From: Mycobacteriales bacterium
GTDB lineage: Bacteria; Actinomycetota; Actinomycetes; JAFAQI01
Assembly: GCA_035545635.1 (NCBI GenBank)
Contig: DASZXY010000024.1
Span: 130,685 to 194,684, forward strand
Direction: 5' to 3'
DNA length: 64,000 nt
Position 1 is the first letter of the stretch; every line of letters starts with the position of its first letter. Of this stretch, positions 32,958 to 57,860 are shown in pieces. Made by a program: the position numbers and the translations under genes. A model generated the notes under the pieces. The model saw nothing but the letters and a program-made list of their open reading frames with translations. It did no database searches and was not told the origin of the DNA.

Positions 32958-32977
32958 GACGCTTCTAGTCTGGCCTC

Positions 32978-35052: not shown

Positions 35053-36063
35053 ATGACCGGACTGCCGCCTCTCACGGTCAGCCGATTCTTCGGCACGTGG
35101 GACATGGATCCGTGGATCGCCACCGCGTGTGCTCTCGTCCTCGGCGCGTACTTGCTGGCGGTGCGTCGGGTGCGCCGCCAGGGGGACGCGTGGCCCGTCG
35201 TACGCGTCGTCGCCTTCGTCGGACTCGGGCTCGGGCTGGTCGTCGTCGCGACCATGTCGTCATTGGCCGTGTACTCACGGGTGCTTCTGTGGCCGATGGC
35301 GCTGCGAGTCACCGTCCTGCTGACCATCGTCCCGGTCGGTCTCGGGCTCGGCGACCCGGTCGGCCTCGTCAGCGCGGCGCTGTCACCGGCGGGTGCGGCG
35401 CGCTGGCAGGGACTGCTGCGGGCCTGGCCGGTCCGGGTGCTCACCTTCCCCGCGGTCGCGCCGCTGCTGGCGGTGGCGACCCAGTTCGTCGTGTTCTACA
35501 CCGGCTACCTGGGGGCCGCTGAGCGCGACGCGGTCGTGATGCGGCTGCTCGACCTGCAGCTCGTGGTCACGGGGTGCCTGTTCGCTCTGCCGCTGCTGGG
35601 TGTCGAGATCCTTCCGCTCTGGTGCACCCAGCCGGTGCGGATGACCTTCGCGGCGATCGACGGGCTGCTCGACGCCATCCCTGGGATCGCGGTGATGACG
35701 AGCAGCACGCTCGTCGCGGGCGGTTACTACGGCACGGTCACCCGGTCGTGGGGCCCGACCCGTTCGTGGGACCAGACGATCGGTGGTGGCTTGATGATCA
35801 CGGTGGCCGAGGTGGTCGCCGTGCCGTTCGTGGCGATCCTGTTCGCGGCCTGGATTCGGGAGGATGCCCGTCACGCCAAGGAGGTCGACGCCGCGCTCGA
35901 CGTCGCTGAGGCGCGCCGCCGCGCTCTGACGCCGGTGGACCAGGAGCCCGCCGCAGATCGGCCGTGGTGGGAGGTCGAGCCGGGCCCGCTAGCCGATCGG
36001 GCGGCTCGCTATGGCTGGAAGCGGGAGGACCAAGAAGGACCGGATCGCCGAAATCGCGAATAG
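35053..36063 (+). CDS. Cytochrome c oxidase assembly protein (caa3-CtaG-like membrane protein)
   Basis: Start at internal ATG 35053. WDMDPWIATACALVLGAYLLAVRR opening and a polytopic profile typical of the family. Confidence 0.65.
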   Translation: MTGLPPLTVSRFFGTWDMDPWIATACALVLGAYLLAVRRVRRQGDAWPVVRVVAFVGLGLGLVVVATMSSLAVYSRVLLWPMALRVTVLLTIVPVGLGLGDPVGLVSAALSPAGAARWQGLLRAWPVRVLTFPAVAPLLAVATQFVVFYTGYLGAAERDAVVMRLLDLQLVVTGCLFALPLLGVEILPLWCTQPVRMTFAAIDGLLDAIPGIAVMTSSTLVAGGYYGTVTRSWGPTRSWDQTIGGGLMITVAEVVAVPFVAILFAAWIREDARHAKEVDAALDVAEARRRALTPVDQEPAADRPWWEVEPGPLADRAARYGWKREDQEGPDRRNRE

Positions 36064-36104
36064 CCTGGGCGGGTTCCAGCTTTGCGTCAGCAAGGAGTGC
36101 CTGC

Positions 36105-38903
36105 ATGAGCCGCCATCGTCTGCTCGCCGCCGTGTCCGTCCTCGTGACCTTGACGGGCACCGGAACGGCCATCGCGCGATCGGGCTCGAGCCAGGGGACC
36201 GCTCCGGCGATCGGCATCCCGAGCGCCGAGTTCTGGGCGCACCGGCTGTACCCGAGCCGCACCCTGAGTGCGCAGACGCTGGCGAGCCAAGCCGTCGGTG
36301 GCGAGAACGACGCTGAGGAAGAGGAGTCCGGCCGCGACGAGGGCATCGCGCTGAAGCCGATCAGCAACGTGCTCTACCAGGGCAACACCGACGAGAAGTT
36401 CCTTCGGCTGACCAGCGAGGCGAAGAAGCTCGGCGAGACTGGCGGCGCCTGGCGTAACAAGGGCCCGTTCAACGGCGTGAAGTCGATCCTCGGCACCGGA
36501 AGCGGCGCAGAGCTGCTCGGTGCCGTCGGCGGGATCGGAACGGCGATGGTCGTCGACCCCAACGACCGGTCCGGCAACACCGTCTACCTCGGCACGATCG
36601 GCGGTCTGTACAAGACCACCAATGGCGGCAAGACGGTGCACAACATCACGGAGGGCAAGATCGCGCGTGAGGCGGTCGGCGCAATCGCGGTCGACCCCCA
36701 CAACCCGAAGCTGCTCTACCTCGGCACCGGCGTTTCGATCTTCACGCTGTCCGACGACGCAGCCGGCACTGGCGTCTACGTGTCGCGCAACGGCGGCAAG
36801 ACCTGGAGTCGGCCGAAGGCGAACGTGCACGGGTACGGCGTCAACGCGGTCTCCGTGAACCCGAGCAACGGCGACGTCCTCGTCGGGACGACCTACGGGC
36901 TGTGGCGCTCGACCGACCGGGGCAGAAGCTTCCACCGCGTCAACGTGCCGACCCACGCGAAGTACGGGCTCGGCAACTGGCTTGCGTCGATCGCGGTCAA
37001 CCCGTTCAACCCGCGCGAGGTGACTGTCGACGTCGGCTACGCCTTCGGCAAGAAGTCGTACGGCGGCAAGGTGGTCGCGCCGGGCAACGGCCTGTACCGC
37101 TCCACCAACTACGGCCGCACGTTCAAGTACATGGCGAGCAACTCCCAGCTGAACCAGCCGCTGTCCTCGAGCGACCCGCTTGGCCGGGTGAGCCTGTCCT
37201 ACAGCACCGTGCAGAGCGGCGGCCGAGGCGTCCTGTGGGCGCTGGTCCAGGACGCGGGCCTCGCAAACGGTGACCACCTGACCGTGGACAACCCGGTGCT
37301 GCCGGTGGTCGTGGACGGCAACACCGAGCTCAACGGGCTGTACCGCTCGAACGACGACGGCAAGTCGTGGGCGCTTCAGGCGGATGCCCAGACGCTGACC
37401 GCGACCCTCGGCGCAGCAACGGGTCTAGTGGGCTACCCGCTGAGCTACGCCGCGGGTGTGCAGGCGTCGTACAACAACTGGGTCCTCGCCGACGGCAAGG
37501 ATCCGAACCGCGTGTACATCGGTCTCGAGGAGGCCTACACGGGCGAGTACCACGGGCCGACGAACACGAACGTCCCGCTTGGCACGAGTTGGACGGCGGT
37601 TGAGAAGTACGCGAACGTGTGCGGCTTCCTCACCTACTTCAACACGATCCCGAACAGCAACGGCGTCGCCTGCCCGTCGATCATCCCGGAGTACGGCAAG
37701 GGCACCACCCACCCGGACCAGCACAGCGCGGCGATCGCGGTGACCCCTCACGGTGAGCGGTTCTACAGCGGCAACGACGGTGGTTGGTGGGTGCAGAACG
37801 CGCACAGCGTCACCGACACGACGGGGGTGGCCTACCAGGGCTTCGACAACTCGACCTGGAAGTCGCTCAACGCGCCGGCGACCGTGTTGCCGTGGGACGT
37901 CACGCGGCTGCAAGACGGCTCGTACCTGCTTGCGCTGCAGGACAACGGCGTCGCTCACGTCATGCCGAACGGGAGCGCCTACCAGGTGTGTGGCGGTGAC
38001 GGCGTGTATGTCTACCCGGGCGCGAACGCGCACTCGTACTACTGCGGCATCGACGGTCAGACCATTCTCGGCACGACCGACGACTTCAAGCACACGATCA
38101 ATCTGACTCCAGACGACAACGCGACCGGCGCAACGTTCCTGTCGCCGTGGTGGGTGGACCGGACGAATCCGAACCATCTGATCGCGGCGGCCGGCAACGT
38201 CGACGAGACGACGTTCGGCATGGCGAGCAACACCTACGACCCCACGCAGGAGGAGCTCCTCGCCTCGACCTGGAAGACGGTCTTCACCCCTGGCAAGGCG
38301 CCGAACGGCACGTGGGACTCCACGGCGGTCACCACGCAGGGCAAGACGTCCTACGTCGCGTTCTGCTCGCTGTGCCGGCCGTCGCTGGCCACCGGATCGG
38401 CCGCCACGCCCAAGAAGGTCATCACCAAGATCGCGACCAACGTGAAGCCCGGTTGCGTGTCGGCGGTGGCCAGCCCGAAGTGCTGGCACATGGCCGCGGC
38501 AAAGGGCCTGCCGCACCAGCAGGTGGGTGAGATCGCGGTGGATCCGAAGGATCCCGAGACGATCTACGTCGGAATGCGCAAAATGATCGTCATGGGCGCG
38601 AGCGACAAGGCCGTGGGATCAGCAAAGGTGCTGGTCAGTCACGACGGCGGCGCTACCTTCCACGACGTGACAGGAAACATGCCGCGGGCCGACGTGCACC
38701 GGTTGATCCTCCGTGCCGGCCGTCTCTACGCGGCGACCGACGTCGGGGTCTTCACGGCGAAGGCCGGCAGCAAGCACTGGAAGCGGTTCGGCACCGGCCT
38801 GCCGGAGGTCACCTTCCGGAGCATGGCGTTGTCGCTCGACGGGAAACATCTCGTTCTCGGCGCCTATGGCCGAGGAGTTTGGGACTACACCTTCAAAAAG
38901 TAA
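36105..38903 (+). CDS. Large secreted Asp-box (BNR)/beta-propeller repeat protein (GH74/sortilin-like)
   Basis: SD AAGGAG plus ATG 36105. Signal peptide MSRHRLLAAVSVLVTLTGTGTAIA. Repeated SxDxGxxW/F-type motifs (SRNGGKTW, STDRGRSF, STNYGRTF, SNDDGKSW, SHDGGATF). Confidence 0.7.
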   Translation: MSRHRLLAAVSVLVTLTGTGTAIARSGSSQGTAPAIGIPSAEFWAHRLYPSRTLSAQTLASQAVGGENDAEEEESGRDEGIALKPISNVLYQGNTDEKFLRLTSEAKKLGETGGAWRNKGPFNGVKSILGTGSGAELLGAVGGIGTAMVVDPNDRSGNTVYLGTIGGLYKTTNGGKTVHNITEGKIAREAVGAIAVDPHNPKLLYLGTGVSIFTLSDDAAGTGVYVSRNGGKTWSRPKANVHGYGVNAVSVNPSNGDVLVGTTYGLWRSTDRGRSFHRVNVPTHAKYGLGNWLASIAVNPFNPREVTVDVGYAFGKKSYGGKVVAPGNGLYRSTNYGRTFKYMASNSQLNQPLSSSDPLGRVSLSYSTVQSGGRGVLWALVQDAGLANGDHLTVDNPVLPVVVDGNTELNGLYRSNDDGKSWALQADAQTLTATLGAATGLVGYPLSYAAGVQASYNNWVLADGKDPNRVYIGLEEAYTGEYHGPTNTNVPLGTSWTAVEKYANVCGFLTYFNTIPNSNGVACPSIIPEYGKGTTHPDQHSAAIAVTPHGERFYSGNDGGWWVQNAHSVTDTTGVAYQGFDNSTWKSLNAPATVLPWDVTRLQDGSYLLALQDNGVAHVMPNGSAYQVCGGDGVYVYPGANAHSYYCGIDGQTILGTTDDFKHTINLTPDDNATGATFLSPWWVDRTNPNHLIAAAGNVDETTFGMASNTYDPTQEELLASTWKTVFTPGKAPNGTWDSTAVTTQGKTSYVAFCSLCRPSLATGSAATPKKVITKIATNVKPGCVSAVASPKCWHMAAAKGLPHQQVGEIAVDPKDPETIYVGMRKMIVMGASDKAVGSAKVLVSHDGGATFHDVTGNMPRADVHRLILRAGRLYAATDVGVFTAKAGSKHWKRFGTGLPEVTFRSMALSLDGKHLVLGAYGRGVWDYTFKK

Positions 38904-38915
38904 CGGGAGGCCGAC

Positions 38916-39593
38916 ATGCGGCAACCAACGTCGAGGGCGCGCTACCGCGCCGCCATCGTCGCGCTCGCTGGCGTCGCGCTGGCAGCGGGAATGGCCAGCG
39001 TCGGCATCATCGTTGCCGAGGCGTCGCCCCATGCCGCGCCTGCGGCAGCTCCGGCGATCATCCCGTGCCCGGTCCCGATCCCCATCCCGGACCTGTGTGA
39101 CAGCGCTTCGCCCAGCGCGAGCGCGTCGACAACCCCGAGCGTGACGGCAAGCCCCAGTGCGACAACAACCACGTCCAGCACGGCCACCGTCACCCCGACG
39201 GTGAGCTCGACGGTGTCCGTGACACCGACGGTGACAGCAACGCACACGACGGCGAGACCCACTCCCACGCCGACGCCCACCCCGACCTCGACGCATGGCA
39301 GTACCGCACACAAGCCGCTGGCCGGCTTCAGTCACGAGTCGGCGACGGGCAAGCACCCCACACGCGTCGTGATCACCCTCGTCGCGCGCGGCAGCAAGAT
39401 CACGAAGCTGACACACGTGAAGCTCAAGGGCTGCACCTGGAGTCTCGGGAAGCCCACCAGCAAGACGTTCAAGGGTGGCAAGCGCAAGGTGAAGATCGTG
39501 GTCAACCGGCGCCACGCCTCCACCAAGGGCTCCATCAGCTTCTACGCCTTTGACGCCGCCAACCAGCACCGCGTCGTCAAGTCTGCGGTCTGA
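38916..39593 (+). CDS. Secreted hypothetical protein (Ser/Thr/Pro-rich linker plus basic C-terminal domain)
   Basis: SD GGGAGG upstream. Signal/TM AAIVALAGVALAAGMASVGIIVAEA, about 90 aa of S/T/P low complexity, then a K-rich beta-type ~90-aa domain. I recognise no family. Confidence 0.5.
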   Translation: MRQPTSRARYRAAIVALAGVALAAGMASVGIIVAEASPHAAPAAAPAIIPCPVPIPIPDLCDSASPSASASTTPSVTASPSATTTTSSTATVTPTVSSTVSVTPTVTATHTTARPTPTPTPTPTSTHGSTAHKPLAGFSHESATGKHPTRVVITLVARGSKITKLTHVKLKGCTWSLGKPTSKTFKGGKRKVKIVVNRRHASTKGSISFYAFDAANQHRVVKSAV

Positions 39594-39609
39594 GCGCGAT
39601 CATGGGGCT

Positions 39610-41649
39610 GTGACCAACGCGCAACAGAGTCGTGCCCGAAAGTCCCTGATCTCGGCGGTTGGTCTCGGGTTGGTGATCGGCGCCGCGGGTCTGCCCGCGG
39701 CATCGGCCGCTGCGCCCACCGCGCTGCCGAGCGACGGCCCGAAGGTGCTGGACGCGCCCGCGAGCCTGGTCGGGCTGGCACCTACCTTGCCCGACGGCGT
39801 CGTGCGGTCCAGCACCTCGCCGCACAGCACCTGGCACCCGGGCAAGGCGATCTACGGCACCGCATCGCACAACAACATCGCGGTCAGGGGTGCCGGAGGT
39901 ACGACGATCCGGGTGAACCTGATCTACCCGACAACCCACGGCAAGCCGGCGAAGGGCAAGTTTCCGGTCGTCATGACGATGACGCCGTACGGCAAGGGCT
40001 CCGGCGGCTCGAGCGGACCGGGCACTGCGCAGAACCCCGGCGGGGGCAGTGTCACCGGAGGTGCCAACAACTACCTGGTTCAGCGCGGCTATCTCAACGT
40101 GGTCGAGGACGTGCGCGGGACGGGAGACTCCAACGGCCAGTGGGGGCTGTTCGACCCGATCCAGCAGCGCGATGCCATCCGCGTCCTCAACTGGGCAGCC
40201 CATCTCAGGCACTCCAACGGCCGGGTGGGCACCTACGGTCCGTCGTACCTCGGCATCGACCAGGGACTGCTCGCCGGCACGGTGGGCAAGCACTCGCCGT
40301 TGAAGGCGATCTTCCCGCTGGTCATGGCTAACGACTCGTATCGCGACACGGCGTTCATGGGCGGGCTGCTGGACGCCGAGTTCAGCACCGCCTACCTCGG
40401 GCTGACCGGAGCACTCAACACCGCCAACCCCCTGCAAGACACGACGAGCGACCAGGACCTCCTGAGCCAGCTCGCGTCGATCGAGACCGATCACGTGAAC
40501 GGCCTGGCGAGCTACCACGCGGCCTTCACGGCGAGCACGCTCGCCGGCGGGCCGCAGACCTATGACGGCACCTACTGGAAAGACCGAGCGCCGGGGCAGC
40601 TGCTGAAGCGGATCGTCGCGAACCGCATACCGGCGTTTCTGATCGGTGGCGAGTTCGACATCTTCCAGCACGGCGAGCCGCTCAACTACGCAGCGCTGCA
40701 GAACGCGTGGGCGCATCGTCCGATCGCCACACCGATGCGATCCGGTCAGAAGGTGACAGGCCGCTACCAGCTGATCGATGGGCCGTGGGAGCACCTCAAC
40801 GGCTCCAGCGTCGGCGTCGACGAGCTCGAGCTCGAGTGGTTCGACACCTGGCTCAAGCACAAGCGCACCGGGATGGCGCACACCCCGACACCACTGCACT
40901 ACTACGACCTCGGCACCGGGACGTTCAACGAGACGACGACCTATCCGTTCGCCGACAGCCAGGCGTCGCGGTTCTATCTCGGAAGCAACGGGTCGCTGAC
41001 GACCAAGCTCCCGGCCGCGGGGTCGACGTCGATCGACTGGCTGCCCGCGGGCAGCCCATGCGGCCGGCCGGTCGACCAGTGGGCGATGGGAGGCATCTCG
41101 ATCCCGTCGCACACTGCGGGCCTCATGGCGCCATGTGCTGACGACGACACCCTCTCGAAGCTCGGCCCGGGCCAGGTGAGCTTCACGAGCGCGCCATTCA
41201 CCACCGCGAAGACGATTGCGGGGCCGATCAGCGCAACGGTTTACGCGACGTCGACCACGACCGACAGCCAATGGATCGCGACTGTCGACGACGTGACCCC
41301 GAGCGGCCGGTCCTACCCGTTGACCCAAGGCGCACTGCTCGGGTCGCTTCGCGCGGTCGACGCAAAGCGCAGCTGGTCATCGAACGGGATCCGGGTGATG
41401 CCGTACCACCCCTACACCCGTGCATCGGCCGAGCCCGTGGTGCCGGGCAAGGTCACTACCTACGAGATCGAGATCTTCCCGACGCTGGCGACGATCGCGA
41501 AAGGCGACCGGCTTCGCGTGACGCTGTCGACCGCGGACACGCCGCACCTGACGCCGCTCCCGGTCCAGCTGCCGAAGCTGCTGGGTGGGACCTACCAGAT
41601 CAGGTACGGCGGCCCGTCGCCCTCGTCGCTGAACGTCTTGCTGCGCTAG
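39610..41649 (+). CDS. CocE/NonD-family (S15, X-Pro dipeptidyl-peptidase-like) hydrolase, secreted
   Basis: GTG 39610 gives a signal peptide (...GAAGLPAASAAAP). YLVQRGYLNVVEDVRGTGDSNGQW and GPSYLGIDQ nucleophile region. Confidence 0.75.
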   Translation: MTNAQQSRARKSLISAVGLGLVIGAAGLPAASAAAPTALPSDGPKVLDAPASLVGLAPTLPDGVVRSSTSPHSTWHPGKAIYGTASHNNIAVRGAGGTTIRVNLIYPTTHGKPAKGKFPVVMTMTPYGKGSGGSSGPGTAQNPGGGSVTGGANNYLVQRGYLNVVEDVRGTGDSNGQWGLFDPIQQRDAIRVLNWAAHLRHSNGRVGTYGPSYLGIDQGLLAGTVGKHSPLKAIFPLVMANDSYRDTAFMGGLLDAEFSTAYLGLTGALNTANPLQDTTSDQDLLSQLASIETDHVNGLASYHAAFTASTLAGGPQTYDGTYWKDRAPGQLLKRIVANRIPAFLIGGEFDIFQHGEPLNYAALQNAWAHRPIATPMRSGQKVTGRYQLIDGPWEHLNGSSVGVDELELEWFDTWLKHKRTGMAHTPTPLHYYDLGTGTFNETTTYPFADSQASRFYLGSNGSLTTKLPAAGSTSIDWLPAGSPCGRPVDQWAMGGISIPSHTAGLMAPCADDDTLSKLGPGQVSFTSAPFTTAKTIAGPISATVYATSTTTDSQWIATVDDVTPSGRSYPLTQGALLGSLRAVDAKRSWSSNGIRVMPYHPYTRASAEPVVPGKVTTYEIEIFPTLATIAKGDRLRVTLSTADTPHLTPLPVQLPKLLGGTYQIRYGGPSPSSLNVLLR

Positions 41650-42275
41650 GTGCCAGCGGTCTTGCGCGCTTCCTTGTTGCCTTCGATCGTCTCTTCGATC
41701 AGGTCGACCTTCTCGCGCGCCGCGAGCGCCTCGTCGGTGAGGTCGAGGGCCTCCGACTCCGCCCGCAGTGCCTCGGCCTTGGTGGCACGCTCGCGCCGGT
41801 CGATCACCTTCTGCTGAGCCGCCTCCTGTGCCTTGACCGCACGTTCCTTCTTGGCGGCTGCTTGCTCGGCGTCTCGTTTCTTTCGCTCGGTTTCGGCCTC
41901 GATGACGTTCTTTCGCTCGTCGGCGGCCCGAGCGGCCTTGCCGCGCTGCACGGCGATCTCGGCGTCGCGCTTGCGCTCCTCGTCGCGAGCCTGCTGCCGT
42001 TCGAGCTCAGAGGCCTTCTTGAGGGTCTGCGCCTCGCGTAGCTTCTCGACCTTCTCCTCGCGGAGCCGAGCCGTTTCGAGCAGCTCGTCGTCGCGCAAGG
42101 CGATGCCGGCCGCGCCCTCGAGCTTGGCCTGGAGGCGCTCGAAGGCCACGGTCGGCGGCCAGTTCTCGTTGTCCTGCTGGCGGGCGATGCGCTCGGCCGC
42201 TGAAAGCGGCGCGCGCAGAGCTCGCAGGTATCCGGTGGTCACGGTCCGGGGGATCGTGCGGATTGCGCCCATCAC
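41646..42275 (-). CDS. Hypothetical E/R/K/A-rich helical (coiled-coil or single-alpha-helix) protein
   Basis: About 60-aa N-terminal region, then ~140 aa of charged heptad-poor ER/K sequence (REEKVEKLREAQTLKKASELERQQARDEERKRDAE...). Start GTG 42275 or ATG 42272. Confidence 0.55.
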   Translation of the reverse strand: MMGAIRTIPRTVTTGYLRALRAPLSAAERIARQQDNENWPPTVAFERLQAKLEGAAGIALRDDELLETARLREEKVEKLREAQTLKKASELERQQARDEERKRDAEIAVQRGKAARAADERKNVIEAETERKKRDAEQAAAKKERAVKAQEAAQQKVIDRRERATKAEALRAESEALDLTDEALAAREKVDLIEETIEGNKEARKTAGT

Positions 42276-42301: not shown

Positions 42302-42799
42302 TCAGCTGTTGTCGTCGGGGTCGGCCGCTTCGGCAGCCCGCTCGGCCTCGCGGGCCTTGGCCGCGAGCTGCGCCGCGTCGGCCTCGGCGTGGGCACGCTC
42401 GGCTGCCGCCTGGCGCTCCTGTCGGTCGAGCGCCTCTCGCTGCGCGGCTTCCTGCTGCTCTACTGCGGCCTCCCGGCGGGCTGCCTCCTGCTGGACCGCC
42501 TGCTCCGCCACGACGCGGTCGCGCTCGATCTGCTGTTCCTTGGCGTCTGCCTTGATCTCCGCCTCGAGGCGGTGGTGCTCTGTCTCGACTTCCTGCCGAC
42601 GCTCGACCACCTCAGCCTTGCGCTGCTCCTGCTCGGCGGCGGCTTCCAGCTTCGCGGCTTCCGCTGCCGCCTCGGCCTTGTCGAGGTGGAGCTCGCCCTC
42701 ACGCTTGAGGTCGTCGTTGCCGGTCAAGGTTCCAGCGACCTGCTTGGCCGCGCCCTTGACGCGATCGGTGATTCCGAGTCCCGAGTTTCCGGTGCTCAC
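42302..42799 (-). CDS. CsbD-family stress protein fused to a long E/A/Q/R-rich helix
   Basis: SD GAAGGAG plus GTG 42799. CsbD core GITDRVKGAAKQVAGTLTGNDDLKREGELHLDKAE, followed by ~110 aa of charged helical low complexity. Confidence 0.65.
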   Translation of the reverse strand: MSTGNSGLGITDRVKGAAKQVAGTLTGNDDLKREGELHLDKAEAAAEAAKLEAAAEQEQRKAEVVERRQEVETEHHRLEAEIKADAKEQQIERDRVVAEQAVQQEAARREAAVEQQEAAQREALDRQERQAAAERAHAEADAAQLAAKAREAERAAEAADPDDNS

Positions 42800-42882: not shown

Positions 42883-45021
42883 TCACCTTCGCTGCGAGCG
42901 TGCGGCGGTCGCCTTGCGTGTGGTTGTCGCCTTGCGAACCGGCTTCGTGATTCGGCCGAGTGCCTCGGCAAGTGCCTCGCCGTCGAGCGTCTCCTGGTCG
43001 AGCAGCTGCTGGACCAGGGCGTCGAACCCGGCACGGTGGGTGCGCAACACATCCGTTGCCGACGCGACCGCGGCATCCACGAGGCGTCGTACCTCCGCAT
43101 CGAGGATCTCCTGCTGCTGCGGGGACACGTCGGCGAGCGGGGTGTCCTCATCGAGAAACCCGGCTCCGGATGGCGCGAGGAGGCGCACCGGTCCGATCCG
43201 GTCCGACAGGCCGAAGCGCGCGACCATGTCGCGCGCCAGCACCGATGCGCGAGCGATGTCCGGCTCACCAGCGGTCGAGCCGCTGCCGAGGACGAGCCTT
43301 TCGGCGGCAAGGCCTGAGACGAGGCCGGCAAGGCGGGTAGCGAGATCGTCGCGAGACAACACTGCGGCGTCGTCGGCCGCAACCTGTGTCGTGCCGCCGA
43401 CTGCGCCGCGCGCCAGGATCGAGATTCGGTGAAGTGATGACGGGTCGCCGTGCGCCGCGACGTACGTCGCGTGCCCTGCCTCGTGCACCGCAAGCCGGCG
43501 CCGCTCGTCCTCGCTGAGCAGCCGGCCACGTCGCTTCGGTCCGGAGAGCACTCGCTGCACGGCCTCGTTGATGTCGGAGACCGTCACCTCTCGGCGGTTG
43601 TCGCGGATCGCGAGCAGCACCGACTCGTTCATCACGTTGGCGAGGTCGGCGCCGGTGAATCCCGGCGTGCGGCGCGCGACCTCGTCGAGTGAGACGTCGG
43701 CGGCTAGTGGCTTGCCGCGTGCGTGGATCCGAAGGATGTGCGCGCGGCCCTCGAGGTCGGGCCGGTCGATGGTGATGTGCCGGTCGAACCGGCCGGGGCG
43801 CATCAGCGCCGGGTCGAGGATGTCGGGCCGGTTGGTCGCGCCGACGACGACGATGCCTTGGGCGATCTCGAAGCCGTCCATCTCGACGAGGAGCTGGTTG
43901 AGGGTCTGTTCGCGCTCGTCGGAGCCGCCGCCGCCCGACGCGGCGCCCCGCTTGCGGCCGGCTGCGTCGAGCTCGTCGATGAACACGATGGCGGGTGCGG
44001 CCGCGCGGACTCGGGCGAACAGGTCGCGGACACGCGCGGCGCCGACGCCGACGAGTGACTCGACGAACTCCGCGCCGGCGACGTTGAAGAACGGCACCCC
44101 TGCCTCACCGGCGACCGCCTTCGCGAGCAGCGTCTTTCCGGTGCCGGGCGCACCGAACAGCAAGACGCCCTTCGGCGGTGCAGCACCGAGGGCCTGGTAG
44201 CGCTCGGGATCGGCGAGGTAGTCGCGTACCTCCCGGAGCTCCGCAACGGCTTCGTCAGCGCCGCCGACGTCTTCGAAGCTGATCGTCGACTCTCCGCGCT
44301 TGAGCCGGCCGCGACCGATCGTGCCGAAGACCATGACCTCACCGATCGCCGATCCGCCGGCCCGGGTGACGGTGAAGAGCAAGGCGAACAGGTCCGCGAG
44401 CACCATCAGCGGAAGCAGGAACGTCGACACGGCCTGCACGGCATGCTTCGAGCCTTGCTGGTCGACGAGGTACGGCGTATCGGTGTCGCGCAGGACGTTG
44501 CCGAGTGCCTGGAAAGCCTGCCCGCCTCCCGGTACGGCGGCGTGCAGCACCCCTTGCTCTGTGGCAGGCACCGGACCGGGAGGCAGTGCGCCAGGGGCTG
44601 GCGTTGGCGTGGCCGTGGCCTTGCCCGCCTTCGCGCCCTTCGCGTCGTTGGCGGACTTGTGGTGCCTCTTCTTCGTCTGCTCCGGGGCGGGAACCGGTAG
44701 CGGTCCGTAGTGCGCCACGACGACGTTGTCGAAGTCCCGGAACGTGACCTGCGAGAGCCGCCCCTCCTGCGCCATCGTGCTGACGACGCCGAGGCCGACG
44801 CTGCGCCCAGGGTCAGTTCCGCCATACAGGTAGGACATCGACCAGCCGAAGCCGGCCAGCAGGACGAGCAGCGCGAACAGCAGCAACGCGGCGGTTCCGC
44901 GATGCTGTGTCTTGCCGCGACCTTTGATGGCGCGGGTGCGCGCCCACTGCCGGACGGCGGTCCTCGCCGTCGCGATCGGATCGCGGCGACTCTTCTGCCC
45001 GCTCGGTTCGGGGGTGGTCAT
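42883..45021 (-). CDS. FtsH-family membrane AAA+ zinc metalloprotease paralogue
   Basis: Two TM helices flank a ~140-aa external loop. Walker A GAPGTGKTLLAKAVAGEAGVPFF, Walker B IVFIDELD, SRH ATNRPDILDPALMRPGRFD, M41 zinc motif HEAGHA. Confidence 0.85.
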   Translation of the reverse strand: MTTPEPSGQKSRRDPIATARTAVRQWARTRAIKGRGKTQHRGTAALLLFALLVLLAGFGWSMSYLYGGTDPGRSVGLGVVSTMAQEGRLSQVTFRDFDNVVVAHYGPLPVPAPEQTKKRHHKSANDAKGAKAGKATATPTPAPGALPPGPVPATEQGVLHAAVPGGGQAFQALGNVLRDTDTPYLVDQQGSKHAVQAVSTFLLPLMVLADLFALLFTVTRAGGSAIGEVMVFGTIGRGRLKRGESTISFEDVGGADEAVAELREVRDYLADPERYQALGAAPPKGVLLFGAPGTGKTLLAKAVAGEAGVPFFNVAGAEFVESLVGVGAARVRDLFARVRAAAPAIVFIDELDAAGRKRGAASGGGGSDEREQTLNQLLVEMDGFEIAQGIVVVGATNRPDILDPALMRPGRFDRHITIDRPDLEGRAHILRIHARGKPLAADVSLDEVARRTPGFTGADLANVMNESVLLAIRDNRREVTVSDINEAVQRVLSGPKRRGRLLSEDERRRLAVHEAGHATYVAAHGDPSSLHRISILARGAVGGTTQVAADDAAVLSRDDLATRLAGLVSGLAAERLVLGSGSTAGEPDIARASVLARDMVARFGLSDRIGPVRLLAPSGAGFLDEDTPLADVSPQQQEILDAEVRRLVDAAVASATDVLRTHRAGFDALVQQLLDQETLDGEALAEALGRITKPVRKATTTRKATAARSQRR

Positions 45022-47588
45022 CTCGTTCCTTTCCGGCGAACCCGGGCGAGGTTCGGTTGGGGCTGAGTGCGGACGCGGAATGCGAGTGCTGCCGCACCGG
45101 TGAGCAGCAACGCGGCGGCGTAGAGCATCGGTGCGCCCATGTCAGGACCGTTGTCGTTGACCGCGGGCTCGGTGTCCGCGCTCTGGTTCAGGTCGGCGAG
45201 GGCGAGCTGACTCTGCTGCTCTTCGTTCGTCGCAGCGCCAGTGCCCGGGTTGACGTTCGGGTTGATGTTGCTCGTGAGCGGGGGTGGCGGGGGCTGCGCG
45301 GCGACCGCCGGCGCAACGACGACTGCCGGCGGCACGGCGACAGTCGGTGGGGTGGGTAGGCAGCGGAGGACGACCGACGTGTGGGCCACCGTCGTGCTGC
45401 CGACCGCGCCGGAGAGATTGATCGGTGTCCGGCTACCGGCCGCCGACACCGGGCAGTTGTAGACGACGGTGACCGGGAGCCGGCTCTTCGCGTGAAGGTT
45501 TGCGTGCTCGCGTGAGGCGCCGGCTAATGACGCGACGGAAGGCCGGCTCGAGTGGAGGTGGACCGAGAGCAGGCCGGGAGCGACAACCTGTTCGATCAGC
45601 CGGGCGACCGGACCGGCGAGCACGGCGATCCCCGCCCCGGTGATCGGCACGCTGCACACCATCGGCGCGCCGGCCGGAACGTCCGGACGGCCGTCGGCGT
45701 GGCAGGCGAGACCGCCTTCGGGTGCGTCGGTCCGGGAACCGGACGCCAGCGAGCGCAGGTCGGCGGCCGCGTCATTGAGCCCATCGTTGATGCTGATGCC
45801 GACCAGTCGTACGTCATACGCGCGGAGCGCGTCGGTGGTCGCCGTCAGAGTCGGATACGGCGAGTGCAGGTGCATCGGCGCATCGGTGATCAACACGATC
45901 ACCTTGGTGGCGTCAGGGCGGAAGCCGGCTTCCTGACCGGGTTCGACCCATCCGGGGACGCCCGATCCGGTGATCGCCTGCATCACCGCGGTGGTGTCGG
46001 CCTCGGCGACATCGCCGCCCCCCGCCGCGGACAGCCGGCCAAGCGCCCGGCCGAGGCTGGGCCCGACCGGAGCGATCCGCTGGTCGAGCACGTACAGGTG
46101 GTGCTTGTGCAGCAGGCCGCCGGCGATCTGTCCGCTGCCGCCCGGCAGCGAGATGCCCTCACCGTCGTTGTAGTCGCGGAAGTCCGCGAGACCGACCTGC
46201 AGGTTTGGCGTCGTGTGGCTGAGCGTCTCGATGATCTGCTGCATGCCGTGTCGCAGGCCGGAGATCGCGGGCAACATGCTGTTCGTCGTGTCAACGAGGA
46301 AGTCGACATCGAGCGGTCCCGACCTTGCCGGCACCCGCAGCAGGTAGTGCGCGACCTGTCTCTGCCCGACCTGCAGCGTCACGATGTGCGGGGCGGGAGC
46401 GAAGGATGGCTTCGTACTCCCGAATCCCGCTACGCCGTGCAGCGACACCGCTTCGCCGGGCCGGTGGGCGAGCGGTGGCTCGGTGATGAAGGCCGCCGGA
46501 AAGGAGAGCGGCAGCTCGTAGATGAATCCGGCGGCGATGCCATACAGCACGGGTGGAAGTGCCGGAGCCACCAGCTGTAGGTGTTGGGCGACCAGACCGA
46601 GCGGGCTGATCAGCTGCCACTTGTGCTTTGTCGGGTCGTAGCCGTAGTCGCCGTGCGGCGTGGAGATCGCGCGGACGCCGGGCTCGAGCGAGACGTGCGT
46701 GGCACTCAGGACACCGGACGGGGCGCCGATCGCTCGGGTGCGGCCGCCTGCAACCGCGAGCAACCTGCCGCTTTCCAGGTAGACGTCGAGGTTCGCGCCG
46801 GAGGCGTCGATCGCGGTGATCCGACCCGGAGTCCGGCGCGTGATGGTGAAGCTGTCACCGCCGTTCGGTGAGCGGGAGTAGGCGTTTGCCGAAGCGACGT
46901 CGATGATGTCCGCGATGTTCGGGTCGGCGGATATCGCGGTGAGTGAGCCGAGACCCGGGACGAATCGGTGCTGCCAGGTGATCTCGTTGCCCAGGCCAGG
47001 CGATGAGGCGTAGAGCTGCGAGTCCGTCACGGTCTGCACCAGCGCATAGGCCACACCGGCCTTGTTGGTGGGCTGCAGCTGCGTCACCGTCGCGGCCGGC
47101 GGCAGTCCCGCGCCGGCGAACGTGTAGCTGCCGGTGCCGTTCGCGCTGTGCCACACCGTGGACGTACCAACGCGACCCGCGCTTGTTGCTGTGGTCACCC
47201 ACACGCCGTCAGCGACCGCGACCTGCGTGACGTGGCTCGCGGCGGCACCGCCGGGGATGCTCTTCACCGTCGCGGGGGCATCGAACACGGTGCGCCACGA
47301 GCAGCCGCCGTCGTCCGAGCGCGCGACAGACGTCGCGTTCCAGGCGTAGATCCGGCGCAGCACTCGGGGGTCAGCCGTCGCGCCGAGCAGCGGCAGCAGG
47401 TTGGCGGGGGGCCGGATCGAGGTCCAGCCGTCGGTGCGTGCGATCACTCCGTGGGTGCGCCGGCAGGCCTGCGTGTTCACTCCGGCGCCACCGGGGCTCG
47501 TGCCAGCGATCGCCAGCGGCGCAGCGATCGCAGGCGCGGCGAGCGCAGCAGCGAGCGCGACAGACCATCGCGTCCGGCGGGGTTTCAC
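45018..47588 (-). CDS. Exported, C-terminally membrane-anchored protein with Asp-box region and vWA-like domain
   Basis: GTG 47588 with a signal peptide. SDDGGCSW and SPNGGDSF motifs, MIDAS-like VDFLVDTTNSM ... ADTTAV ... VLITDAP, Pro-rich stalk, TM MLYAAALLLTGAAALAF and a basic tail. The vWA call rests on motifs only. Confidence 0.65.
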   Translation of the reverse strand: MKPRRTRWSVALAAALAAPAIAAPLAIAGTSPGGAGVNTQACRRTHGVIARTDGWTSIRPPANLLPLLGATADPRVLRRIYAWNATSVARSDDGGCSWRTVFDAPATVKSIPGGAAASHVTQVAVADGVWVTTATSAGRVGTSTVWHSANGTGSYTFAGAGLPPAATVTQLQPTNKAGVAYALVQTVTDSQLYASSPGLGNEITWQHRFVPGLGSLTAISADPNIADIIDVASANAYSRSPNGGDSFTITRRTPGRITAIDASGANLDVYLESGRLLAVAGGRTRAIGAPSGVLSATHVSLEPGVRAISTPHGDYGYDPTKHKWQLISPLGLVAQHLQLVAPALPPVLYGIAAGFIYELPLSFPAAFITEPPLAHRPGEAVSLHGVAGFGSTKPSFAPAPHIVTLQVGQRQVAHYLLRVPARSGPLDVDFLVDTTNSMLPAISGLRHGMQQIIETLSHTTPNLQVGLADFRDYNDGEGISLPGGSGQIAGGLLHKHHLYVLDQRIAPVGPSLGRALGRLSAAGGGDVAEADTTAVMQAITGSGVPGWVEPGQEAGFRPDATKVIVLITDAPMHLHSPYPTLTATTDALRAYDVRLVGISINDGLNDAAADLRSLASGSRTDAPEGGLACHADGRPDVPAGAPMVCSVPITGAGIAVLAGPVARLIEQVVAPGLLSVHLHSSRPSVASLAGASREHANLHAKSRLPVTVVYNCPVSAAGSRTPINLSGAVGSTTVAHTSVVLRCLPTPPTVAVPPAVVVAPAVAAQPPPPPLTSNINPNVNPGTGAATNEEQQSQLALADLNQSADTEPAVNDNGPDMGAPMLYAAALLLTGAAALAFRVRTQPQPNLARVRRKGTR

Positions 47589-47596
47589 GGGTCAGC

Positions 47597-50065
47597 TCAG
47601 GCGCGGCAGCGCGCGCCGAGCTTGAGGCCCTGCCCGGGCTGCGGCGCGGTCGCGACGTCCTGGGTGAAGCCGAGCGGATTCGTCGCCGGGGTCGCGCCGG
47701 AGAGGTTGTAGACCGAGATCGCGTACGGGTACTTCAGGATCGTGCCGCGCTTCGGGTTACCGACGTCCTTCAGCGGAACCCGCATCGTGACGGTTCCGGA
47801 GCGGAACGAGCCGGTGATGGTGTGCTTCGGCTGGTAGCTCGTCTTCGAGATGCCGTCGACGAACGACAGTCCGCCCTGCACGGTGACGTCAGCCTCGGCG
47901 AAGTACGTGGTCTTTCCGGCCGTCCACAGCATGAGGAACGACTTGCCACCCGCTGCGCCGAGCGGGGGAGTGGTGGACAGGTTCTGTCCGGAGATGGTGG
48001 CGATCAGTGTCTTGCCGGACACATGCAGCGCCGCGTTGGTGATGTCGTTGTTGGCGTCCTTCACGCCGGGGTACAGCGGGTTGGTCGCATTGCCCGACGG
48101 GCTCGTGAATGCGACGCAGCCGTTCAGCTTCAGGTGGAGCTTGCGCTGCGGCTTCGGGAACGACGGCGTGAGGCGGTGGTCGACGTCCTGCATCAGGTTC
48201 TTCACGTTCATGGCGCCCCAACCGGTCACGTAGTCCCAGCCCCCGCCGGCGCGGTAGTAGACGTTGCCACCCGCGGTCTCACTCTTCGTGATGTCGGTGA
48301 AGTCGCGGTGGTAGGTCTTGCTCTTGCCGAGCCGGTAGAAGGTCTCGTTCGCGAAGCCGAGGCCCTTGCGGGTCGGCGCGGCCGCCTGGATCCGGGACCA
48401 CATGCCGACCGCGAGCGGTGACGACAGGCTGGTCCCGCCGTTGCTGCTGTCAGTCATGTCGGCCTCGATCTCGTAGAAGTTCGAGGCGAGGAACGAGCTC
48501 GGGTCGTAGGACATCACGGTGCCCGACATGTCTGCGATGTCACCGACACCGCGGCAGAGCGTGCCCGGGTTGTACGGCGTTCCGCTGGGATCGACGACGC
48601 ACGGGATGTTGATCGCGGGGATGCCCTTCTGGTAGTCGGGCTGCTGGATCCAGAAGCTCGACCCGCCGCCGGAGTAGGTCCACCCGACCTCGCTCTGCCG
48701 GTGCGTGGCGATCATCCGAGGCGCTTGGGTGGTCGTCGTCACGGTGGTGCCGTCGACACCCGTGACGTGCGGGCTCGCCGCCGGGTAGTTCTGCTCCGGG
48801 ATGGGCTGCGGCGTCAGGCCGTTGCCCGCACCGAGGACGGGCACGACGATCGCGGGGCAGGATCCGCCGGTGTCACCGGTGGAGGCGAACAGGGTGCGGC
48901 CTTCGAGGTTCGCCTGCCGCAACATCGGCTCGGCCACCGGCTCGAGCTCGTCGCCGGCCTCGCTGCCGTAGAAGAACGGCGGCTGCGCGAGCGGCCCCAG
49001 AACCGGGTTGGCCGGTGAGGTTTCGCACTCGCCGAAGCTCGCGTTCATCTGCTGCGGGCCCTTGGGGTCGTTGACCCAGGTGGAGATCCCCGCGCCGATC
49101 GACGCGTCGAACAGCTCCTTGACGTCGTAGAGGTCGAGCTCGCGAAGCTTGGGGGCCATACCGGTGATCGCGGCGGCGTCGAGGAACCATTCGGTGCCGC
49201 CCAGGTTGTCGCCGTACTCCCCGGGTGTGCCTTTGCCGTCGGCCTGGACGGTCCGGACGGGGATCTGCGGGAACTTGTTGTGCTGCTCGAACAGCCGCAG
49301 GTTCGCGACGACGCTGTTCGTGTAGCCCTCCATGAAGATGCCGGCGGTCTGCCCCTCGCCCTGGTTGGTCTTCGGCAGGTTGTAGACGCCCCAGAGGTTG
49401 CGCGCGTAGAGCTCGCCCGTGTACGGCCCCTTCTTGACCTTCGCGTGCGGAGCTGCAGGCGTGATGCCGTTGGCGGCGTCGACCCGCGCGACCTGGTTGC
49501 TGGTCCACATCCGGCGCAAGGTGTTCAGGCCGAGCACCGCCGTGACCGGAAGGTTCGCGGGGACCTCAGGGGCCACCTCGTTGGCGATGAAGTGCAGCGT
49601 GCCAACGCGGAACGCGCCGAACCGCGTGTGCATCAGCGTGCCGACCTGCGCGACCGTGCCGGTCGCGGTGACGTAGTCGCGGGCGCCCGAGACGGTCTCG
49701 ATCTTCAAGCCGCCCGAGCGCAGCCATGACGCCGCTGCCCGCTCGGTCGCGACGGGCACGGCGAAGTGTGCCCGGTACTGCTGCGGCGTCAGGAAGTGCC
49801 GGTAGAGCGGGCTGCTCGGCTTGTACAGCTGCTTGTAGAGCTTCTCCTCGAGCGCCGCGTTCGGGTGGGCGAGCCCGAGACCGACGGTCAGCACGGTGCC
49901 GGCCGGCGCGGCGCCGACGCGGGTGGCGTTGGCCAGGCCCGGCAGGACCGCCTTGGTCCGGACGAGCCGGATGCCCGAGGTCGTGGCTGCCGCGGACGCC
50001 ACGGACACCGAGGTGCCGAGGACAGACAGACAGGCGAGACCGACAGCAGCGCGCCGGACGTTCAT
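47597..50065 (-). CDS. Secreted S53 (sedolisin/kumamolisin-type) serine-carboxyl peptidase with C-terminal extension
   Basis: Signal peptide, pro-kumamolisin-like activation region (LTPQQYRAHFAVP...), catalytic E/D GGTEWFLD, oxyanion Asp ASTGDTGGS, nucleophile GGTSLSSPL. An extra ~250-aa beta-rich C-terminal region follows. Confidence 0.8.
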   Translation of the reverse strand: MNVRRAAVGLACLSVLGTSVSVASAAATTSGIRLVRTKAVLPGLANATRVGAAPAGTVLTVGLGLAHPNAALEEKLYKQLYKPSSPLYRHFLTPQQYRAHFAVPVATERAAASWLRSGGLKIETVSGARDYVTATGTVAQVGTLMHTRFGAFRVGTLHFIANEVAPEVPANLPVTAVLGLNTLRRMWTSNQVARVDAANGITPAAPHAKVKKGPYTGELYARNLWGVYNLPKTNQGEGQTAGIFMEGYTNSVVANLRLFEQHNKFPQIPVRTVQADGKGTPGEYGDNLGGTEWFLDAAAITGMAPKLRELDLYDVKELFDASIGAGISTWVNDPKGPQQMNASFGECETSPANPVLGPLAQPPFFYGSEAGDELEPVAEPMLRQANLEGRTLFASTGDTGGSCPAIVVPVLGAGNGLTPQPIPEQNYPAASPHVTGVDGTTVTTTTQAPRMIATHRQSEVGWTYSGGGSSFWIQQPDYQKGIPAINIPCVVDPSGTPYNPGTLCRGVGDIADMSGTVMSYDPSSFLASNFYEIEADMTDSSNGGTSLSSPLAVGMWSRIQAAAPTRKGLGFANETFYRLGKSKTYHRDFTDITKSETAGGNVYYRAGGGWDYVTGWGAMNVKNLMQDVDHRLTPSFPKPQRKLHLKLNGCVAFTSPSGNATNPLYPGVKDANNDITNAALHVSGKTLIATISGQNLSTTPPLGAAGGKSFLMLWTAGKTTYFAEADVTVQGGLSFVDGISKTSYQPKHTITGSFRSGTVTMRVPLKDVGNPKRGTILKYPYAISVYNLSGATPATNPLGFTQDVATAPQPGQGLKLGARCRA

Positions 50066-57637: not shown

Positions 57638-57709
<72 letters not shown>

Positions 57710-57744
57710 GCGGGCCGCCCGACCTAAGATCGCAGGGCAAGCCG

Positions 57745-57817
57745 CGGGGCGTAGCGTAGTGGCTAGCGCGCCTGCTTTGGGAGCAGGAGATCGGGAGTTC
57801 GAGTCTCCCCGCCCCGA
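57745..57817 (+). tRNA. tRNA-Pro (anticodon TGG)
   Basis: cggggcg-ta-gcgt...gcgc-cctgc-tttggga-gcagg-agatc-gggag-ttcgagt-ctccc-cgccccg-a cloverleaf. Confidence 0.9.
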
Positions 57818-57860
57818 CAGCACACCGATCCATCTATCTGTTCAGGAGATCTGCGCCCCA

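Follow-up and report, generated by a model that had tools for sequence, protein, structure and literature searches.

An FtsH paralogue with a leucine pore loop, conserved beside an integrin-like membrane-anchored protein in uncultured Actinomycetota

When the gene of a membrane-bound protease overlaps that of an exported, membrane-anchored protein, are the two products linked in function, or do their genes merely lie side by side? The question is raised by a stretch of 64,000 nucleotides (nt) from a metagenome-assembled genome (MAG) of an uncultured Mycobacteriales bacterium, here called the window, to whose positions all coordinates refer unless another locus is named, and in which the gene of an 856-amino-acid (aa) protein is followed by that of a 712-aa FtsH-class AAA+ protease. 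An earlier note on this DNA had described the first product as an exported von Willebrand factor A (vWA)/Asp-box anchor protein and had proposed that the FtsH paralogue may extract it, degrade it or be gated by it. To our knowledge, bacteria have no membrane-anchored AAA+ protease other than FtsH, which is commonly regarded as a generalist and whose choice of membrane substrates is poorly understood. An FtsH lineage with a single conserved neighbour would constitute a defined pair in which the recognition of tails and transmembrane (TM) helices, the dislocation of membrane proteins and the role of the pore-loop aromatic residue can be studied. Our analysis indicates that the two genes are inherited together as a conserved membrane module; the module is real, and all its known cases are in uncultured Actinomycetota or a few related MAGs.

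Seen from the FtsH side, the adjacency is obligate. In the subfamily loci analysed in detail (listed by context in Table 1), a full-length homologue of the 856-aa protein, hereafter the partner, adjoins the FtsH gene on the same strand in 15 out of 15, with gaps of -4 to about 117 nt, and the same arrangement is found on two short contigs (L005 and L110). Among these 15 paired loci either gene order occurs, and the genomic contexts number five or more; the FtsH proteins of the glnA context are only 53-61% identical to the window FtsH, and BLASTP matches between the window partner and the partners of other contexts have E values of 2e-34 to 6e-21, covering the vWA domain and the C-terminus. The 893-aa partner of the glgE context (L011) has no vWA domain, and its match is limited to the propeller and the C-terminal module. 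Furthermore, a scan for FtsH genes in one genome per GTDB species, which was based on exact peptide words and listed 80 loci, revealed a full-length partner next to FtsH in all five loci that covered the N-terminal region (from Frankiaceae, Frankiales, Mycobacteriales and Actinomycetota MAGs) and at none of the 74 non-subfamily FtsH loci, two of which displayed weak matches to the propeller region only. Conserved co-occurrence, whose lack the earlier note had named as evidence against its proposal, is thus what these contexts display. One locus on a 4.9-kb Dormibacterales contig (L017) carries a Leu-pore FtsH that belongs to the paired clade, with no partner homologue detected within its short flanks; either the pairing may fail in this case or the contig may be too short to show it. 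The two proteins have diverged together: pairwise distances among FtsH proteins and among partners correlate with r = 0.91, a value inflated by shared species phylogeny and clusters of close relatives, and none of 5000 Mantel permutations reached it. Among close relatives of the window partner (59-82% identical), the order S53 peptidase, partner and FtsH is kept together with the whole neighbourhood; pairing within the window's own clade therefore proves little by itself.

The ATGA stop/start overlap of the two genes, from which translational coupling had been read, stands as well. A GAAAGGAA ribosome-binding site lies 7-8 nt 5' of the ftsH ATG, within the partner gene, and the identical 4-nt overlap is kept in L001, L002, L003 and L005 (relatives about 59-82% identical); the overlap is not chance in one sequence, because it recurs in relatives of 59-79% identity.

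The most distinctive change in the FtsH paralogue, which the earlier note had overlooked, is a Leu in the pore-1 loop. Among the best 120 database matches, on which the counts for the closest relatives rest, the pore-1 residue is Leu in 100 and Phe or Tyr in 12 (the pattern was unmatched in 8); every Phe/Tyr case is a protein about 860-1180 aa long that has two or more AAA matches. At other FtsH loci the residue is Phe in 59, Tyr in 3, Leu in 6 and Ile in 1; these six additional Leu-pore loci group in the same clade, outside of which stand the 59 Phe and 3 Tyr cases. In a neighbour-joining tree of the AAA-M41 core (93 sequences, 50 bootstraps), the FtsH genes that adjoin a partner constitute, together with one Dormibacterales sequence, a single clade in 50/50 bootstraps, and so do all 24 Leu-pore sequences, including five from Solirubrobacterales-type MAGs (24/24 in one clade, 50/50 bootstraps). 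The sister group of the Leu-pore clade is of the Phe/Tyr type; its FtsH sequences stem from Actinomycetota MAGs and from one Dormiibacterota MAG. A profile search that went exhaustively through 1.84 billion cluster representatives recovered at least 17 Leu-pore clusters (50% identity) among its 150 best matches, and the subfamily is therefore sizeable. In the open-access literature we found no description of a clade-wide Leu pore loop in FtsH.

In its remaining anatomy the paralogue is a complete FtsH, as had been deduced from GAPGTGKT, IVFIDELD, ATNRPDILDPALMRPGRFD, HEAGH and the two TM helices. Pfam recognizes AAA (2.7e-42), AAA_lid_3 and Peptidase_M41 (6.4e-38); the TIGR01241 model is passed narrowly (610.9 bits against a cut-off of 600) and NF008004 is failed (424 against 1008); and residues 241-693 align to Thermotoga maritima FtsH with an E value of 5e-142. 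The third zinc ligand is the Asp of GEPDIARAS, which aligns with the NDIERAT motif of T. maritima. The ATPase and zinc-protease residues are intact in the window protein and invariant in the FtsH family alignment, and judging from its sequence the paralogue looks enzymatically active. The external loop that had been called unusually long does contain a K/A/P-rich insert, in a segment of about 131 aa, but it is otherwise an ordinary FtsH_ext domain interrupted by that insert; among relatives, P0068 gives a PF06480 (FtsH_ext) match of 32 bits and P0041 and P0101 give weak ones, but none was detected in the window FtsH itself.

The separate clade and the gene order indirectly favour the assignment of the window FtsH as an accessory paralogue, in agreement with the earlier note. 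It is surrounded by genes for an S53 peptidase, an SDR protein, CsbD-like proteins and an S15 peptidase and not by the tilS-hpt-ftsH-folE-folP order, and neither hpt nor folE occurs in any of the five contexts of the pair. Within Solirubrobacterales, Phe-type FtsH genes (L024, L030) lie in tilS-hpt-ftsH-...-folP, whereas the Leu-type genes sit among those of large exported proteins; the Phe-type FtsH of an actinobacterial MAG (L018) is found in tilS-hpt-ftsH-folE-folP. The window cluster is located between pepN and tig...clpX, an interval that we take not to be the ftsH region in the Mycobacterium tuberculosis gene order. Further, two subfamily FtsH proteins, HEX8002099 and HEX8003188, each with a partner of its own, very likely share one MAG (GCA_036382875.1), as their accession blocks suggest; no Phe-type ftsH was seen among the accession blocks that showed the two copies.

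The partner is identical to an NCBI entry annotated as 'hypothetical protein VHD81_12405'. From the N-terminus it comprises a predicted signal peptide, an Asp-box propeller, an integrin-beta-type head, an immunoglobulin (Ig)-like domain, a Pro-rich stalk, an acidic helix, a TM helix and a short tail. We identified 18 homologues, 13 of them full-length and 59-82% identical, all from uncultured Mycobacteriales or metagenomes; a profile search for more returned the same 19 proteins together with unrelated BNR/Vps10 propeller proteins. The AlphaFold2 model built on the alignment of the 18 homologues has a mean predicted local distance difference test (pLDDT) value of 67.9, mostly 70-90 within domains, and a predicted template modelling (pTM) score of 0.42, and the packing between domains is therefore unreliable. 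Six Cys are invariant in the mature protein across the alignments, which fits an extracytoplasmic location. In the propeller, two Asp-box motifs are recognizable (SDDGGCSW, aa 91-98; SPNGGDSF, aa 240-247), homologues match PF15902 and PF02012 in this region, and the profile search retrieves Ycf48/BNR/Vps10 propeller proteins.

The head is where the vWA assignment, with its metal ion-dependent adhesion site (MIDAS), had to prove itself in profile and structure searches, and it did. The 856-aa protein narrowly passes the gathering cut-off of PF00362 Integrin_beta (26.3 against 24.8 bits), with sub-threshold matches to VWA (PF00092), VWA_4 (PF25106) and vWA_SIBA-E (PF24909). In a Foldseek search of the PDB, integrin beta headpieces account for 50 of the 50 matches listed (E values 6e-17 to 1e-14, probability 1.00), the alignments spanning 390-435 columns at 10-15% identity; this span exceeds the vWA domain alone and fits the layout of integrins, whose betaI domain sits as an insert within the hybrid domain. 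In the AlphaFold2 model, strands and helices alternate at aa 426-650, between beta elements at 395-420 and 671-744, and the Ig-like sandwich, as modelled, completes a hybrid-domain-like arrangement around the vWA insert. As for the MIDAS residues, D433 and S437 are invariant in alignment A2, which includes homologues only 22-30% identical, and D433, T435 and S437 in alignment A1; E529 is invariant; T568 in A2 and D569, the ITDA Asp, in A1 are nearly so. Of the 15 FtsH-paired partners, 14 carry a D-x-[ST]-x-S motif. The motifs that the earlier note had picked out (the Asp boxes, VDFLVDTTNSM, VLITDAP and AQPPPPPL), the C-terminal TM helix and the basic tail all lie where it had placed them, and GGGDVAEADTTAV is a further motif of the partner. 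The head most likely belongs to a ligand-binding receptor or adhesin.

Towards the membrane, a disordered Pro/Gln-rich stalk of about 70 residues (aa 749-818) holds the acidic helix, and the motif NPxxG.A..(E/Q)EQxQLAxA is found in partners of every context. In each full-length family member inspected, the chain ends in a TM helix followed by a basic tail, which is 8-23 aa long, and the C-terminal module that these members have in common is composed of stalk, motif, acidic linker (often with LAMS-like residues), TM helix and basic tail. The residues before the TM helix are GPDMGAP in the window protein, LAMS or LAMVG in L008, L012-L014 and L092, and exactly LAMTG in L009; they resemble the LAxTG signal of class E sortases and are likewise followed by a hydrophobic segment and a basic tail, but the motif is degenerate, and no open reading frame with a TLxTC sortase motif was found in the window or in the flanks of the related loci.

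Seen from the partner side, the association is looser. A metagenome scan seeded with the partner alignment gave 20 loci, and only 2 have an adjacent FtsH; two more distant homologues also lack an FtsH neighbour, and the MAG of one of them (P0017, in VNB94) probably encodes a subfamily FtsH elsewhere. On our assumption, FtsH would serve such partners in trans. The C-terminal motif was considered as a mark of FtsH-paired partners and was rejected, the same motif, TM helix and tail being present in proteins with no FtsH within up to 10 kb. Partners without FtsH are followed by conserved exported genes of about 210-215, 245 and 430 aa, the last with Big_1/Big_3_5 domains, which suggests a second kind of system built on the same anchor protein. 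The neighbourhood survey therefore upholds the earlier expectation of a conserved pair for every subfamily FtsH studied in detail and not for the many anchor homologues without an adjacent FtsH: the FtsH subfamily appears to depend on the partner, and the partner family to be broader than the pairing.

What, then, might the protease do with its neighbour? FtsH degrades membrane proteins starting from their short cytoplasmic tails; it is able to dislocate TM segments and comes to a halt at stable domains. On the basis of this biology and of the pore data cited below, we tentatively favour a reading, possible though not yet probable, in which the partner is a client whose membrane anchor is handled by the paralogue through extraction or turnover. 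The paralogue would engage the anchor module, that is, the membrane-adjacent helix, the TM helix and the short Arg-rich tail, would pull tail and TM helix from the membrane and degrade them, and would stall at the folded, disulphide-containing ectodomain. A Leu pore with a weak grip may suffice to thread the unstructured tail, the TM helix and the disordered stalk of about 70 aa, and extraction would set the amount of anchored receptor, whether for quality control or for a regulated removal or release of the receptor. We infer physical contact of the two proteins, the direction of action (the partner as client and not as regulator) and every step of the extraction. Such contact is most likely at or near the membrane, because all paired partners share the propeller and the C-terminal anchor module, and the anchor rather than the vWA head appears to be the common element, because the vWA-less partner of L011 keeps propeller and C-terminal module. 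A contact between MIDAS and ATPase in the style of MoxR systems is impossible, since the vWA head lies outside the cell and the AAA ring inside, and a vWA-AAA+ partnership like those of MoxR is probably not what links the two proteins. Regarding the pore, an aromatic residue is required for unfolding by FtsH, according to the portion of PMC5511170 that cites Yamada-Inagawa 2003, and the D1 ring of p97 naturally has Leu at the pore position and gains unfolding activity by Tyr substitution (PMC5511170).

Several points weigh against the partner being a client. Homologues that bear the anchor module often have no FtsH in the available flanks (L004, L006/7, L096-L100, L106), and because these proteins keep the module, it is not specific to FtsH pairing. 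The tight and possibly equimolar co-expression that the ATGA overlap would bring about suits a stable complex at least equally. The correlation of the distances is inflated, as stated above; all examples come from uncultured MAGs or metagenomes; and in the open-access literature we found no measured effect of a Phe-to-Leu change in an FtsH pore.

The direction of action could also be the reverse, the integrin-like protein being a stable partner that gates FtsH proteolysis of other substrates. A ligand bound at the MIDAS/propeller head would then be signalled through stalk, TM helix and tail, or through a contact between the acidic helix and FtsH_ext; this would be outside-in signalling with a protease as output, comparable to control by HflK/C. 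Much of the evidence lends itself to such a sensor: each subfamily FtsH has a partner while partner homologues occur without an adjacent FtsH, the ATGA overlap hints at translation of the two genes at a constant ratio, the partner, whose cytoplasmic tail measures just 8-23 aa, lacks an output domain of its own, the acidic helix is conserved on the outer face, and the changes peculiar to the FtsH subfamily (the external insert and the N-terminal extension) sit at possible docking sites. However, neither SPFH nor any other known FtsH-regulator domain was found in the partner with Pfam and NCBIfam (E <= 0.1), homologues with no FtsH nearby conserve the acidic helix and the anchor module to the same degree, and no candidate downstream substrate is conserved across contexts; we regard this reading as rather unlikely in itself, and as nearly as good as that in which the anchor is a substrate. 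A gentler role is conceivable too, in which the ATPase assists insertion, folding or assembly of the receptor, proteolysis is a back-up for molecules that fail, and the Leu pore holds its substrate and does not thread it. The clade-wide Leu would find a parallel in the p97 D1 ring, which is naturally Leu and works without substrate threading (PMC5511170); the partner, large, with several invariant Cys and a C-terminal anchor, is likely hard to assemble, and the adjacency is strictly one to one. Yet the full zinc-protease site is strictly conserved, which argues for central proteolysis, and partner homologues with no dedicated FtsH evidently get by, so that assistance of this type is, in our estimate, distinctly improbable.

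Two further explanations dispense with a specific pair of this kind, and we give them much less weight. If the gene were an ordinary housekeeping ftsH, its adjacency to a surface protein would be conserved synteny and nothing else, and the passed (if only narrowly) TIGR01241 threshold, the intact catalytic motifs, the syntenic neighbourhood within the window's own clade and the extent of the source-genome evidence (64 kb of a MAG) are all compatible with it. This is very improbable in view of an adjacency that is maintained, at 50-60% FtsH identity, in either gene order and in five or more contexts unrelated to each other, of a separate clade (50/50 bootstraps) with a derived pore loop, of two subfamily members with their own partners that very likely share a MAG, of the absence of hpt and folE from all five contexts, and of the tilS-hpt-ftsH-(folE)-folP order that Phe-type genes of Solirubrobacterales and of another actinobacterial MAG hold and the Leu-type genes of Solirubrobacterales do not. 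Scarcely credible, finally, is a reduced form of the MoxR-vWA 'FtsH ternary' anti-invader conflict systems of Kaur et al. (2020), with which the locus shares a superficial match, an N-terminal propeller-vWA fusion beside an FtsH-type AAA+ protein (PMC7159879). No MoxR, Ubl-ligase, caspase or effector gene is present in any context, the window FtsH, with its two TM helices, one AAA domain and M41, is of the classical membrane type and not a two-AAA protein, and the vWA protein is exported and has kept its MIDAS intact; likewise PADLOC gives only generic AAA similarity and the partner has no NCBIfam match. In detail, PADLOC 2.0 found nothing for the partner, the S53 peptidase and the two small downstream proteins, and matched FtsH only to IetA and TRIP13 through the AAA domain; a reading as a defence system was rejected, since neither PADLOC nor NCBIfam returned anything specific.

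The coordinates of the features are compiled in Table 1. Three consecutive minus-strand genes, for the S53-like peptidase, the 856-aa protein and the 712-aa FtsH, fill 42883-50065. The S53 gene, which is probably co-transcribed with the pair, is syntenic upstream of it in L001, L002, L003, L005 and L093 and was not found in the glnA, glgE or other contexts; it was considered as a core component and rejected, being confined to the window's own clade. Directly after ftsH follow two genes of highly charged coiled-coil proteins that are paralogues (35% identical) and whose membership in the module is doubtful. They were also compared with the genes that follow FtsH-less partners: an equivalence of the 207-209-aa genes after the pair with the 207-218-aa genes after FtsH-less partners was rejected, as BLASTP gave no similarity, and the window's small downstream proteins look cytoplasmic and coiled-coil, the 207-218-aa proteins being exported. 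Scans for promoters and terminators gave nothing above the expectation from shuffled sequence.

Table 1. Features of the protease-anchor pair and of its surroundings. Positions are those of the window; for the contexts and the last row, related loci (L numbers) are given instead.
Feature	Position or loci	Strand	Basis or remark
S53 (sedolisin-like) secreted peptidase, 822 aa	47597..50065	-	Pro-kuma_activ 5.7e-23; stop 8 nt before partner GTG
Partner gene, 856-aa exported, C-terminally anchored integrin-like protein	45018..47588	-	GTG start; stop inside ATGA overlap; open reading frame and translation
Predicted signal peptide, aa 1-29	47502..47588	-	n-region KPRRTR, then Ala/Leu-rich h-region; read from sequence
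Asp-box (BNR / Sortilin-Vps10 / Ycf48-like) beta-propeller, ~aa 55-360	46509..47426	-	All-beta in AlphaFold2 model
Integrin-beta-type head: beta strands aa 395-420, vWA/betaI aa 426-650	45639..46406	-	Pfam, Foldseek
MIDAS motif D433-T-T435-N-S437	46278..46292	-	Conserved in alignments
Ig-like beta-sandwich, aa 671-744	45357..45578	-	AlphaFold2 secondary structure; C712 and C743 invariant
Acidic membrane-adjacent helix NEEQQSQLALADL, aa 788-800	45189..45227	-	Family-wide motif; AlphaFold2 helix 789-801, in low-pLDDT stalk
C-terminal TM helix aa 821-837 and 19-aa Arg/Lys-rich tail aa 838-856	45021..45128	-	Sequence; AlphaFold2 helix 819-839
ATGA stop/start overlap, partner gene / ftsH	45018..45021	-	Sequence
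FtsH paralogue, 712 aa, Leu-pore subfamily	42883..45021	-	ATG is the first start codon in frame
N-terminal basic cytoplasmic extension, aa 1-43	44893..45021	-	Subfamily-wide; R28 invariant, R30 nearly invariant
TM1, aa 44-66	44824-44892	-	Sequence
Extracytoplasmic FtsH_ext-like domain, aa 67-197	44431..44823	-	Family alignment
K/A/P-rich low-complexity insert splitting the FtsH_ext-like domain, aa 109-154	44560-44697	-	Family alignment
TM2, aa 198-218	44368-44430	-	Sequence
Walker A, GAPGTGKT	44131-44154	-	Intact
Pore-1 loop FVESLVGVG, Leu at the E. coli F228 position	44041..44067	-	Alignment to T. maritima FVELFVGVG
Walker B, IVFIDELD	43966-43989	-	Intact
Second region of homology with Arg fingers, ATNRPDILDPALMRPGRFD	43783-43839	-	Intact
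HEAGH zinc site, aa 513-517	43471-43485	-	Intact
Downstream charged coiled-coil gene, CsbD-like N-terminus	42302-42799	-	Syntenic only in L001-L003
Second downstream charged coiled-coil gene	41646-42275	-	Syntenic only in L001-L003
Context S53/SDR...S15	window, L001-3, L093		
Context glnA-GATase...glnE	L008-10, L012-13, L092		914-948-aa partner after FtsH
Context glgE...Cpa-like AAA	L011		893-aa partner before FtsH
Other contexts of the pair	L014-16		
Exported gene set after FtsH-less partners	L006 8132-10023; L097 3620-6503; L099 10110-10760; L106 1552-4317		

Some further observations concern the surroundings of these genes. About 4 kb from the pair lies the gene of a 979-aa Sortilin-Vps10/BNR propeller protein (35964-38903, plus strand), the second Asp-box propeller protein of the neighbourhood, which is syntenic in L001 and L002 and has no C-terminal anchor module. 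Genes of secreted peptidases abound nearby, namely S53, S15 (39550-41649), M1 (24199-26772) and M15 (32969-33682). The trigger factor gene is located at 57699-59264 (plus strand) and clpX at 61396-62829 (plus strand), which places the pair about 10 kb from a core proteostasis locus. In L011 (4260-11352), the 893-aa partner is followed by FtsH, a 748-aa double-AAA (Cdc48/Cpa-like) protein and an ABC transporter.

Two groups of FtsH relatives also deserve mention. Leu-pore FtsH genes of Solirubrobacterales-type MAGs (L041 13550-17794, plus strand; L048 13036-17436, minus strand; L034; L026) adjoin genes of exported proteins of about 1400 aa, which show weak Ycf48/BNR matches, a stalk rich in Pro, an acidic stretch, a TM helix and a tail rich in Arg. 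The arrangement parallels that of the window pair, but between these neighbours and the 856-aa partner no sequence homology was detected. The other group, proteins of about 1130-1190 aa with a Tyr pore (P0032-P0039; P0143, P0144 and others; named sources are Acidimicrobiales and Gaiellaceae MAGs), matches the FtsH profile in several stretches. By sequence they appear to carry duplicated AAA modules, and they are possible counterparts of the two-AAA 'FtsH' in the ternary systems that Kaur et al. described.

The pair is of interest beyond FtsH itself. A prokaryotic protein that combines an integrin-beta-type hybrid/betaI head with propeller, stalk, TM helix and tail bears on the origin of integrin-like architecture, and on how integrin-like receptors signal without a cytoskeleton. 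If the paralogue does release or gate the receptor, this would be a new way of controlling surface adhesion or envelope sensing in Gram-positive soil bacteria. A bolder proposal, which we consider unlikely, is that the module constitutes a bacterial integrin-like transmembrane device with an AAA+ protease as output, and it comes in two forms: in one, ligand binding at the single-chain propeller and betaI head would switch the dedicated FtsH through one TM helix; in the other, FtsH would process a new tripartite anchor signal (motif, TM helix and basic tail) and thereby release the ectodomain. The former would amount to outside-in signalling by proteolysis, and the latter to a sorting or shedding role never assigned to FtsH. 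Such a device may also exist in Solirubrobacterales, where Leu-pore FtsH genes adjoin those of the 1400-aa anchored Ycf48/BNR-like proteins.

How does the module compare with systems already described? With canonical FtsH (Escherichia coli FtsH/HflB and the T. maritima protein; TIGR01241, MEROPS M41), the window FtsH shares the two TM helices, the FtsH_ext-type domain, AAA and M41, and it differs in the Leu pore, the 43-aa basic extension, the external low-complexity insert, the genomic context, the separate clade and the anchor-protein neighbour. HflK and HflC are single-pass proteins with large external domains that associate with FtsH and modulate the access of substrates. They are N-terminally anchored SPFH/prohibitin proteins, whereas the window partner is anchored at its C-terminus, carries a propeller and an integrin-beta head, and has no SPFH domain. 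In MoxR-vWA pairs (RavA-ViaA, NorQ-NorD, the BatA/B operons), a vWA gene adjoins that of an AAA+ ATPase, as it does here; unlike them, the ATPase of the window is a classical FtsH with its protease, the vWA domain is extracytoplasmic, and one paired partner has no vWA domain at all. No MoxR gene was found in the window flanks or in any related locus.

On the side of the anchor protein, integrin beta and integrin-beta-like proteins present the same betaI/vWA domain with a MIDAS between beta-sandwich elements, the same stalk, a single TM helix and a short tail. The propeller of the partner, however, belongs to the same chain and is of the Asp-box/BNR type, that of integrins being an FG-GAP propeller on a separate alpha subunit; in addition, the partner has neither EGF repeats nor a PSI domain, and its gene neighbour is a protease and not a cytoskeletal adaptor. 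Integrin-beta-like proteins for comparison are those of the Pfam family vWA_SIBA-E (Dictyostelium proteins A-E) and the Myxococcus vWA adhesins CglB and CglD (PMC9946355; bioRxiv 10.1101/2023.10.19.562135).

Among accessory proteases, PaFtsH2 of Pseudomonas aeruginosa clone C is, like the window FtsH, an additional copy outside the housekeeping locus; according to the abstract of PMC10850787, it was horizontally acquired, acts on a narrower range of substrates and is no substitute for the core copy, and that abstract mentions neither a dedicated single-pass partner nor a Leu in the pore loop. In the FtsH ternary systems, MoxR is required and is joined by a vWA protein, which often bears a propeller, and by an FtsH-type ATPase with two AAA domains, the first of them inactive; these systems carry Ubl-ligase/JAB or NEFF1/radical-SAM effectors, often have a degenerate MIDAS and are enriched in actinobacteria (PMC7159879). 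They share with the window pair the vWA-propeller protein and an FtsH-type AAA+ protein, while MoxR, the two-AAA ATPase and the effectors were not found here. The earlier note had known of no described system that pairs an exported, membrane-anchored vWA protein with a membrane FtsH; our search of the open-access literature agrees in that we found neither such a pair nor a description of the two-gene module of FtsH and integrin-like anchor protein, but the note had left the ternary systems of Kaur et al. unmentioned. What is already known are the separate kinds of component: accessory FtsH proteases such as PaFtsH2, FtsH regulators such as HflK/C, and bacterial integrin-like vWA adhesins such as CglB and CglD.

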